Part shown: positions 10,569 to 12,095 of the stretch, in pieces | Numbering within the stretch: position 1 is the stretch's first letter | Layout: every line of letters starts with the position of its first letter | From: a virus | Taxonomy: Duplodnaviria; Caudoviricetes | Virus record (IMG/VR): IMGVR_UViG_3300036778_000062 | Span: 1 to 64,000 of that record | Reading direction: 5' to 3' (one strand) | Length of the DNA: 64,000 nucleotides | Position numbers and translations under genes: made by a program | The notes under the pieces: generated by a model | The model's database searches: none | The model's input: only the letters and a program-made list of their open reading frames with translations | What the model was told of the DNA's origin: nothing

Positions 10569-11220
10569 GTGGGGCGGCCAACTGAAGCGCGGTATCCACA
10601 GGAGTTCCGCCGCCCCACAAACAATAGAGACCACTGCACGCGAGTGCAGTGTGGGGCGGCCAATGGACGGTTGACTCCCACCCGGTGTCTCGCCGCCCCA
10701 ACCATTTCGCCTGCTGGGCCATCCCGTCCGCGTGACCCGGTTAGTAACAGCCCAGCAGGCAACCCTTTTGAACACGAAACAGGAAACGCAATCATGAGCA
10801 CTGTTGAAACCCACGAAACACCAGTTGCGCGCAAGCGCAGGACGAGCGCCATTTCCGCGTCGAAAGCCAGAGTACGGTCGCGCTCGTCCACCAATTCCCG
10901 AAAGGGAGCCGGCGGCCAGACGGAAGGCGATACCCAAATCATTGCCGCCGCCGGCAACAATCCCCGCAAGGGGCGGACTGCTGCCATGAAAAACCCGGCA
11001 TCCACGCTGTCTGCGCCGCAGTCCAAAAATCCCCGCAAGGGGGCGAGTGGCCAATGCTGTCCCGACGTTCAACACCCATGCGCCACTCGCAAACAATCCA
11101 GCCGCAAGGCTGGTGGCGCTGTCCATATAGAACACGATGCCCACATCGAGCTCGACAGCGCCAACCCAACAACCGGCTGCCAATCAGCACCAGGGTCCCA
11201 TGCGATCTTCGCGGCCGGTT
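10569..11220 (+). repeat. TIGR-like stem-loop array, units 1-9 (unit 6 degenerate)
   Basis: Repeated CCA-N9-YG-N4-CCA-N9-YG core; each unit closed by a 9-11 bp stem; GNRA hairpin linkers. Confidence 0.85.
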
Positions 11221-12095
11221 ACTCCTCACACCAGATGCCAGACGAGCAGCGCGATGCAATTGCGTCTATCAACGATGCATGGCGTAAGCGGCAAGGCATC
11301 GTGCGCGCGATGACGAAGCTCAGCCTGCAGGCGCAAGCTTCACTGCGCTCTGGTCGAGACCGTGAGGAGGCAGCCAAGATTTACGCGGCTCTCGCAAAGG
11401 ATCCGACGCATCAAGAGTATCCGGTCATCGCGCCGTACCTGGAAGCAATGGTGCCGCTCGCCAAGTACCGCTCCGAGCATGAAAAGACCATCACCAAACT
11501 TGTCAAAAAACTTCCGATCTATCAATGGGCGCAGGGCGTGTCTGGCCTCGGTGATGTGTCGCTGGCCGGTCTTGTCGGAGAGTGCAGCGGCTACAACATG
11601 GAGACTGACGAGCTTTGGTCCATCGGCCAAATGAAATCCGTTTCCGCGCTGTGGAAGCGCATGGGCGTCGGCGTGATTGGAGGAATTCGCCAGCAGCGCG
11701 TCAAGGGCGATGCCGCGATCGAACACGGCTACGTCGCAGAACGCCGCAGCGTGTTGTGGAACATCGGCGAGTGCATCGTGAAGGCCCAGTGGCGCAAGGA
11801 AAACACCGTGCATGCCTACGGCAAGCTCTACGGTGAGATCAAAGTCAGGCTGCAGGAACGCAATGGGGCTGGCGAGTTCGCCGAAACTGCCACGGAGATT
11901 GCCGCCCGCATGCGCAAAGCCGGCAGTAAGCCAAGCGCGGAGAACGCAGAAGGACGGTTGACTGCGATGCACATCAATAACCGCGCTAAGCGGCACGTCA
12001 CGAAGCGATTGTTACGCGATCTGTTCGTGGAGTGGCGCCGGCTGGATGCTGAGGCCAGAGGAGAATTTGCTGCGCCAGTCGCTGAGGCTGCGTGA
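10794..12095 (+). CDS. IS110 C-terminal/Nop-like RNA-binding protein without nuclease domain (TasA-like); alternative start 11235
   Basis: KLVKKLPIYQWAQGVSGLGDVSLAGLVGE, SALWKRMG, HINNRAKRHVTKRLLRDLFVEW; no DEDD RuvC or HNH motif visible. Confidence 0.7.
   Translation: MSTVETHETPVARKRRTSAISASKARVRSRSSTNSRKGAGGQTEGDTQIIAAAGNNPRKGRTAAMKNPASTLSAPQSKNPRKGASGQCCPDVQHPCATRKQSSRKAGGAVHIEHDAHIELDSANPTTGCQSAPGSHAIFAAGYSSHQMPDEQRDAIASINDAWRKRQGIVRAMTKLSLQAQASLRSGRDREEAAKIYAALAKDPTHQEYPVIAPYLEAMVPLAKYRSEHEKTITKLVKKLPIYQWAQGVSGLGDVSLAGLVGECSGYNMETDELWSIGQMKSVSALWKRMGVGVIGGIRQQRVKGDAAIEHGYVAERRSVLWNIGECIVKAQWRKENTVHAYGKLYGEIKVRLQERNGAGEFAETATEIAARMRKAGSKPSAENAEGRLTAMHINNRAKRHVTKRLLRDLFVEWRRLDAEARGEFAAPVAEAA

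Follow-up and report, generated by a model that had tools for sequence, protein, structure and literature searches.

Can guide RNAs be encoded inside the gene of the effector that uses them, so that the same nucleotides are read both as RNA and as protein? The question is raised by a locus in viral DNA (Duplodnaviria; Caudoviricetes), namely positions 1 to 64,000 of IMG/VR record IMGVR_UViG_3300036778_000062; this whole stretch of 64,000 nucleotides (nt) is called the window here. At 9926-12295 of its plus strand, a stem-loop TIGR array of 13 tigRNA (guide) units surrounds tasA, a gene for a nuclease-less effector, and units 4-9 (10840-11220) lie in frame between an ATG at 10794 and the Nop-type core of the protein near 11235. 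The best explanation of the data, to which we give a joint probability of roughly 0.85, is that the locus belongs to the early region of a prophage or temperate phage and encodes a stem-loop TIGR-Tas system, that tasA starts at 10794, and that units 4-9 are dual-coded in a frame kept by selection.

Reading frame and start site across units 4-9

The features on which the argument turns are listed below. Codon phase refers to the first C of the CCA in each unit, phase 0 placing it at codon position 1.

10781-10786, plus strand: Shine-Dalgarno site AGGAAA, 7 nt from the ATG
10794-10796, plus strand: tasA start codon ATG, kept in homologues with the N-terminus M-x-T-V-Q/K/E
10794-11234, plus strand: TasA N-terminal extension, 147 codons, its DNA read as also encoding six tigRNA units and five GNRA hairpins
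10826-10839, plus strand: GNRA linker hairpin 1, GCAA loop at 10831-10834, encodes ARKR
10840-10889, plus strand: tigRNA unit 4, CCA at 10849, phase 1; 10-bp stem, 30-nt loop, 0 motif substitutions
10896-10907, plus strand: GNRA linker hairpin 2, GAAA loop at 10900-10903, encodes SRKG
10908-10955, plus strand: tigRNA unit 5, CCA at 10916, phase 2; 9-bp stem, 30-nt loop, 0 motif substitutions
10962-10973, plus strand: GNRA linker hairpin 3, GCAA at 10966-10969, encodes PRKG
10975-11024, plus strand: tigRNA unit 6, CCA at 10984, phase 1; one C-C stem mismatch, 0 motif substitutions
11031-11042, plus strand: GNRA linker hairpin 4, GCAA at 11035-11038, encodes PRKG
11043-11090, plus strand: tigRNA unit 7, CCA at 11051, phase 2; 9-bp stem, 30-nt loop, 1 motif substitution
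11098-11113, plus strand: GNRA linker hairpin 5, GCAA at 11104-11107, encodes SRKA
11114-11163, plus strand: tigRNA unit 8, CCA at 11123, phase 2; 10-bp stem, 30-nt loop, 0 motif substitutions
11171-11220, plus strand: tigRNA unit 9, CCA at 11180, phase 2; 10-bp stem, 30-nt loop, 1 motif substitution
11235-12095, plus strand: TasA core, coiled-coil and Nop-type RNA-binding domain, no nuclease domain (AlphaFold2, Foldseek, phrog_4285)

A first-pass annotation of the window had proposed a stop-free frame from 10794 through units 4-9 into the Nop-like domain, and the tasA frame was indeed free of stops from 10794 to the TGA at 12093-12095. A lone open frame of 147 codons in DNA of 62% GC has a chance probability of approximately 1-3%, and the minus strand of the window also carries long open reading frames (ORFs) across the array. 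The open frame alone is consequently weak evidence, and the case is carried by the comparative data, which comprise ten homologous loci with DNA (L003-L012) and the window (11 loci). In all 11 of them, the used frame contained no stops over the 441-597 nt that lead from the conserved ATG to the core, while each of the other five frames contained approximately 3.5 stops and a single one of 55 was stop-free. This also answers the observation that the first-pass annotation had named as telling against its proposal, namely stops or frameshifts in this part of homologous arrays. At the level of single units, 65 of 65 in-ORF units were stop-free in the used phase, compared to 73% of 74 non-coding units in matching phases (log10 P = -8.9, P approximately 1e-9); these draws are largely independent, because the spacers differ between loci.

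Translation most likely initiates at 10794 and not at 11235, since the Shine-Dalgarno site, the ATG and the MxTVQ N-terminus are conserved among the loci and the Met at 11235 is not. A purine-rich block was present shortly 5' of the ATG in all ten homologous loci and in the window (mostly ACAGGAAACGC, with the variants GAGGAAC, AAGGAAAC and GAAGGAAC), so that the AGGA Shine-Dalgarno site proposed for 10794 is a conserved feature. Five loci have an in-frame stop 15-18 nt 5' of the conserved ATG, which is there the first start after that stop. By contrast, the codon aligned with the ATG at 11235 is CTG, CTC, CTG, TTG or ATC in 5 of the 11 loci, and we found no purine-rich Shine-Dalgarno site before 11235, as had been suspected. 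Conserved core residues begin immediately after this position. Judged from these substitutions, a start at 11235 cannot serve the family. In the window only, the tasA frame is open further back to 10563, through units 1-3, as far as the stop of an upstream gene in the same frame; homologues carry stops there, and on that comparison the upstream openness is due to chance and does not represent a longer protein. A GTG at 10569 was considered as an earlier start and rejected, given the homologous stops 15-18 nt upstream of the conserved ATG.

The frame might still be taken for an artefact of gene calling, i.e. a chance opening of GC-rich, palindrome-rich DNA across units 4-9, with translation starting at 11235 and the array forming an untranslated leader. 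Within the window such a view has some grounds: three of the six frames carry long ORFs across the array, the used frame is open through the non-coding units 1-3 as well, the extension has no coding signature in its GC positions, and genuine short-form relatives with untranslated leader arrays exist. It does not account for a used frame that stays open in each of the 11 loci, whose spacers differ, while only 1 of the 55 control frames does so, for the unit-level probability, for the conserved Shine-Dalgarno site and ATG at the 10794 position, for the replaced Met at 11235, or for the behaviour of the indels.

Units were grouped by stem into 24 in-ORF families (a looser clustering was dropped, as it had merged unrelated GC-rich stems), and 23 of the 24 kept a single codon phase across loci. 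The distances between orthologous units within the ORF varied by 3, 6 or 9 nt (67/70, 57/60, 66/72 and 59/68), i.e. by multiples of three in four of four comparisons; in the non-coding parts of the arrays they varied by 1-3 nt, with multiples of three in two of nine. The expectation that homologues would always differ by multiples of three therefore held for the linkers inside the ORF, as differences between orthologous inter-unit distances. Together with the absence of stops, this bears out the proposal that the array is constrained to keep the frame. The GNRA loops start at 10831, 10900, 10966, 11035 and 11104, as first annotated, with spacings of 69, 66, 69 and 69 nt, and the translation contains the corresponding peptides ARKR, NSRKG, NPRKG, NPRKG and SSRKA. 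Spacing in multiples of three applies to these loops and not to the unit cores, whose CCA starts are 67, 68, 67, 72 and 57 nt apart; the statement that all unit spacings are multiples of three was accordingly rejected, the cores occupying two codon phases.

Those two phases were the only ones used. Among 66 in-ORF units in the 24 stem families (window and L001-L012), none was in phase 0, and seven units in two distant viral homologues likewise avoided it; the non-coding units of the same arrays were spread over the three phases (27/24/23). When spacers were resampled, the probability of a stop-free unit was 0.60 in phase 0 versus 0.73-0.75 in phases 1 and 2. The lower risk in phases 1 and 2 arises because codons completed by the constant CCA and YG bases never become stops; in phase 0 the spacer instead makes up three unconstrained codons, and TGA can arise from the central YGA. 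Stop risk appears to explain the avoidance of phase 0 in part; the effect is modest and we regard it as a lead.

Conservation of the tail peptide is limited to the pieces imposed by the RNA (VARK-RTSA, AGGQ, DTQ and AAS). The extensions are rich in Ala, Ser, Thr, Pro, Arg and Lys, with 12-17% hydrophobic residues and a net charge of +12 to +20; that of the window has 21 Lys and Arg residues versus 9 Asp and Glu. In the AlphaFold2 model, the predicted local distance difference test (pLDDT) value was below 50 for residues 1-142. The tail is thus predicted to be basic, low in complexity and disordered, as the first-pass annotation supposed, and six complete units lie within the tas coding sequence, in a disordered segment and with the frame intact.

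Several points weigh against the explanation preferred here. The homologues share ancestry, so their stems and phases are not independent. The loci were reached through gene-called proteins, which could favour open frames; this bias is tempered by the fact that 18 of the 19 closest protein homologues (core identity 63-83%) were called with an extension of 143-199 amino acids (aa), the one short exception lying on a 1.2-kb contig. The extension has GC contents of 0.58/0.62/0.65 at codon positions 1/2/3, which is no coding signature, versus 0.64/0.45/0.70 in the core. Co-transcription of guides and mRNA is assumed, and a sigma-70 promoter scan found no promoter-like site either way. When the 13 spacer pairs were searched against the 140-kb contig for targets, with six geometries, gaps of 0-12 and up to 2 mismatches allowed, five matches resulted, all with 2 mismatches and approximately as many as expected by chance, so that no self-targeting was seen. 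With these points weighed, the comparison of loci indicates that the dual coding is real and that the reading frame is kept by selection.

The array, the TasA core and their setting

Each unit consists of a GC-rich stem of 8-16 bp, which differs in sequence from unit to unit, and a loop of approximately 30 nt with the motif CCA-N9-YG-N4-CCA-N9-YG, i.e. two variable 9-nt spacers and short constant motifs. By definition, each unit of a stem-loop TIGR array has two variable spacers of 8-12 nt, bordered by short motifs that are conserved (Faure et al. 2025, Science; PMC12045711; Xu et al. 2026, bioRxiv 10.64898/2026.09.09.750476), and the 13 units here are tandem dual-spacer hairpins with variable palindromic stems beside a tas gene. 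The combination of motif and stem marks the array specifically. Elsewhere on the 140-kb contig we found 85 matches to the loop motif (up to 1 substitution), none of them with a flanking stem of at least 7 bp; of the 94 matches in the ORF extensions of the 11 loci, 61 had such a stem.

Folding of the 480 nt at 10761-11240 yielded exactly the six unit stems and the five linker hairpins (z = -6.7 versus shuffles). The six units are true hairpins with stems of 9-10 bp and loops of 30 nt, and the Shine-Dalgarno site and the ATG at 10794 are unpaired in the minimum-energy fold. Unit 6 coincides with inverted repeat I15, whose arms are 90% complementary and 30 nt apart. Across loci, orthologous units retain their stem, while both 9-nt spacers are wholly different in each locus. 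One example is the stem ggacgagcgc, shared by the window, L003, L005, L006 and L011, in which spacers have turned over inside a fixed scaffold.

The units outside the reading frame are the following.

9926-9973, plus strand: tigRNA unit 0, non-coding, between the helix-turn-helix (HTH) gene and the 186-aa gene; perfect motif at 9934-9965, arms pair at 8 of 9 positions
10569-10618, 10651-10700 and 10709-10760, plus strand: tigRNA units 1-3, stems of 10-11 bp, loops of 30-31 nt
12100-12149, 12161-12223 and 12250-12295, plus strand: tigRNA units 10-12, 3' of the tasA stop, motif matches at 12109, 12176 and 12257
12231-12248, plus strand: GCGA hairpin among units 10-12, 3' of the tasA stop

Units 1-3 form a non-coding leader, bounded by the stop at 10562 and the start of tasA; homologues have in-frame stops there. 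The stems of the downstream units 10-12 (12100-12295, inverted repeat I1) are partly degenerate. On the minus strand, at 10826-11113 and 12231-12317, GNRA hairpins are followed by T-rich runs and resemble terminators (12 such sites versus 5.0 ± 2.7 in shuffles); one possible role is to keep antisense transcription out of the array.

CUU at the stem base has been reported as a processing mark, frequent but not universal (Xu et al. 2026). Among the 140 units mapped in the window and L003-L012, CTT occurred no further than 4 nt from the stem base in only five. Over the six positions that follow each unit on its 3' side, A made up 41%, C 36% and G 6% of the bases. These A/C-rich, G-poor flanks and the near absence of CUU suggest that the processing signal differs in this clade.

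The core comprises the C-terminal 286 residues of the 433-aa product and was modelled with pLDDT values of 85-95 over most of its length (AlphaFold2). All of the ten best Foldseek matches in the PDB were TasH or TasR chains, including 9w04, 9w03 and 9vzx (TasH-tigRNA) and 9mty (TasR), with E-values of 6e-5 to 8e-4, a probability of 1.00 and template modelling (TM) scores of 0.5-0.64 by target. By this structure comparison the core is predicted to have the Nop-type fold of Tas proteins, the match spanning only the Nop and coiled-coil part of TasA. A Pfam search with the full 433-aa protein gave no match, Pfam Nop included, and a profile search against PDB sequences gave no real match. With no HNH or RuvC domain, no Pfam domain and disordered residues 1-142, the protein has the make-up of the TasA subtype. 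PHROGs places the core in phrog_4285, labelled 'transposase' (E = 5e-20), which is probably an annotation carried over from resemblance to IS110.

The 13 dual-spacer units with covarying stems, the TasH/TasR-like core fold and the lack of a nuclease domain are the basis for assigning the locus to a stem-loop TIGR-Tas system; as far as sequence and predicted structure go, it is organised like the stem-loop TIGR-TasA loci described by Faure et al. (2025) and Xu et al. (2026). The neighbourhood consists of a divergent S24/CI-type repressor gene, an HTH gene, a conserved gene of approximately 188 aa and then the array with tasA, and this early-region gene order is syntenic in homologous loci. The third of these genes (186 aa, 10002-10562) lies between units 0 and 1, and its place is kept (187-199 aa) in the homologous loci that span the upstream region. 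It matched no Pfam or PHROG family and contained no match to the loop motif at up to 1 substitution, i.e. no embedded units. An Rfam scan of 8000-14000 gave only a chance miRNA match. Tandem Repeats Finder found nothing in the array, because stems and spacers vary from unit to unit.

Units inside the ORF were also found in IMG/VR homologues at 31-33% identity. In two short-form relatives at approximately 41% identity (L013, 255 aa; L014, 289 aa), the units precede the coding sequence and are not translated; in-frame stops occur among them, and a Shine-Dalgarno site immediately precedes the core. Long and short TasA forms are interleaved on the core tree, and the tail is kept in many clades; this interleaving implies that the tail is not needed for the fold and that the position of the start codon with respect to the array has shifted on more than one occasion. 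The tail is dispensable in natural short-form relatives. Scans for further relatives found none in genome contigs and only two distant loci in viral contigs.

Translation and guide maturation

On the reading preferred here, ribosomes would start at the ATG at 10794, cross six tigRNA units and five GNRA hairpins and then reach the Nop core, giving a 433-aa TasA with a 147-aa tail. The sequence of the tail would be dictated by the RNA, through its stems, its CCA and YG motifs, its GNRA loops and its free-running spacers. Only three constraints would come from the coding layer, namely no stop in the used frame, indels in multiples of three and units in phases 1 or 2, in which the constant CCA and YG close the partial codons, so that each spacer contains fewer codons prone to become stops. 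Guides and mRNA probably share one transcript. Excision of an in-ORF guide would then remove the Shine-Dalgarno site and the start from that molecule, and since a cut anywhere in units 4-9 leaves the core without its only conserved start, guide maturation from these units and translation of TasA would be mutually exclusive for each RNA molecule. The seven units outside the ORF could mature without cost to translation. If it acts like the TasA proteins that have been tested, TasA loaded with tigRNA would bind DNA matching the two 9-nt spacers and repress transcription.

The placement of the units may have a regulatory role, for which two proposals can be made. Tentatively, it could be a stoichiometry device to which the array has become adapted by dual coding: a transcript would give either TasA or the six embedded guides, never both, and TasA binding to nascent units would shift the choice, so that the levels of the two regulate each other. 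Negative autoregulation, as suggested in the first-pass annotation, is an equally speculative possibility. TasA would bind the units in its own mRNA, or promote their processing, and thereby block or destroy the message, and its level would be tied to the supply of guides. The position of units 4-9 between the only conserved start and the core favours this, as a cut there uncouples the two, and RNA-binding proteins such as L7Ae and ribosomal proteins are known to exert autogenous control. Relatives without any in-ORF unit nevertheless work, so feedback is not required by the system, and separate promoters for the guides are conceivable. Autoregulation was also raised as a possibility by Xu et al. 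(2026).

It is improbable that the in-ORF units are decayed relics, now serving as a protein linker or tail only, with guides coming from the seven outside units. The stem mismatch in unit 6, the single motif substitutions in units 7 and 9 and the retention of the tail in many clades could be understood in this way. Overall, however, the in-ORF units keep the motif (mostly 0-1 substitutions) and stems of 8-16 bp, equal to the non-coding units; their stems covary across the 24 families, their spacers vary from one orthologous unit to another just as those outside the ORF do, and the peptide is not conserved beyond the parts imposed by the RNA. In addition, the intragenic units of BlTasA are expressed and loaded (Xu et al. 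2026). Weakest of all is the gene-calling artefact set out above, which the comparative data leave highly improbable.

If guides and effector occupy the same nucleotides, as proposed here, the locus is a rare case of heavy RNA/protein dual coding, and with its relatives it offers a clean comparative proof of selection on the frame as opposed to a gene-calling artefact. For annotation, the true tas start can lie approximately 450 nt upstream of the Nop core. For engineering, reprogrammed spacers in in-ORF units would have to avoid stops in the used frame. If guide maturation and translation do exclude each other, this would be a simple new regulatory principle.

Comparison with known systems

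The most distant likeness is to the IS110/IS621 bridge-RNA recombinases, which share a distantly related RNA-binding fold (8wt6 and 9t56; E = 0.5-0.8). Unlike these, the TasA described here has no DEDD/RuvC or Tnp catalytic domain, bridge RNA or element ends. An IS110-family recombinase was rejected as the identity of the protein, given the absence of Pfam DEDD_Tnp_IS110 and Transposase_20, the disordered N-terminus and the weak fold matches to IS621 and ISCro4 (E = 0.5-1.1). The dual-repeat TIGR systems of TasR and TasH (PDB 9mty and 9w04) are closer, with a Nop-type core fold and the same dual-spacer guide logic, but they have a RuvC or HNH nuclease, conserved edge and loop repeats and Tas-catalysed processing. 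Sequence identity is 16-21%, with no match at the sequence level.

In architecture, the locus resembles the TasA array of a Peromyscus leucopus gut contig (Faure et al. 2025, section 9), in which a nuclease-less TasA gene is likewise surrounded by sub-arrays with 13 stem-loop units in total, each a hairpin whose two spacers are bordered by short conserved motifs. Units inside the reading frame are not described in Faure et al. (2025). For other loci, the literature has shown that units are transcribed, processed to single tigRNAs and bound by Tas, and that TasA acts as an RNA-guided repressor.

The closest counterparts are the Bifidobacterium longum BlTasA and the TIGRFinder systems of Xu et al. 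(2026), who sequenced the small RNAs of BlTasA, surveyed TIGR loci with TIGRFinder and described in-frame intragenic stem-loop tigRNAs, usually in disordered protein regions, with long disordered N-termini typified by TasA. These systems likewise combine a nuclease-less Nop-domain effector with tandem hairpins carrying two spacers of approximately 9 nt, and have units upstream, downstream and inside the tas coding sequence that do not break the frame, the intragenic parts being disordered. Unlike in BlTasA, where the intragenic segment maps to the wedge loop, here six consecutive units and the GNRA hairpins form the entire 147-aa tail. The CUU at the stem bases of those systems is absent here, the flanks are A/C-rich, and the present clade is known from sequence alone. 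The general arrangement has thus already been described in the preprint of Xu et al. (2026), and the present locus is, on comparative grounds, a well-supported further case with six consecutive in-frame guides. The avoidance of phase 0 and the restriction of indels to multiples of three, as seen across the loci compared, are its two small additions to the known picture.

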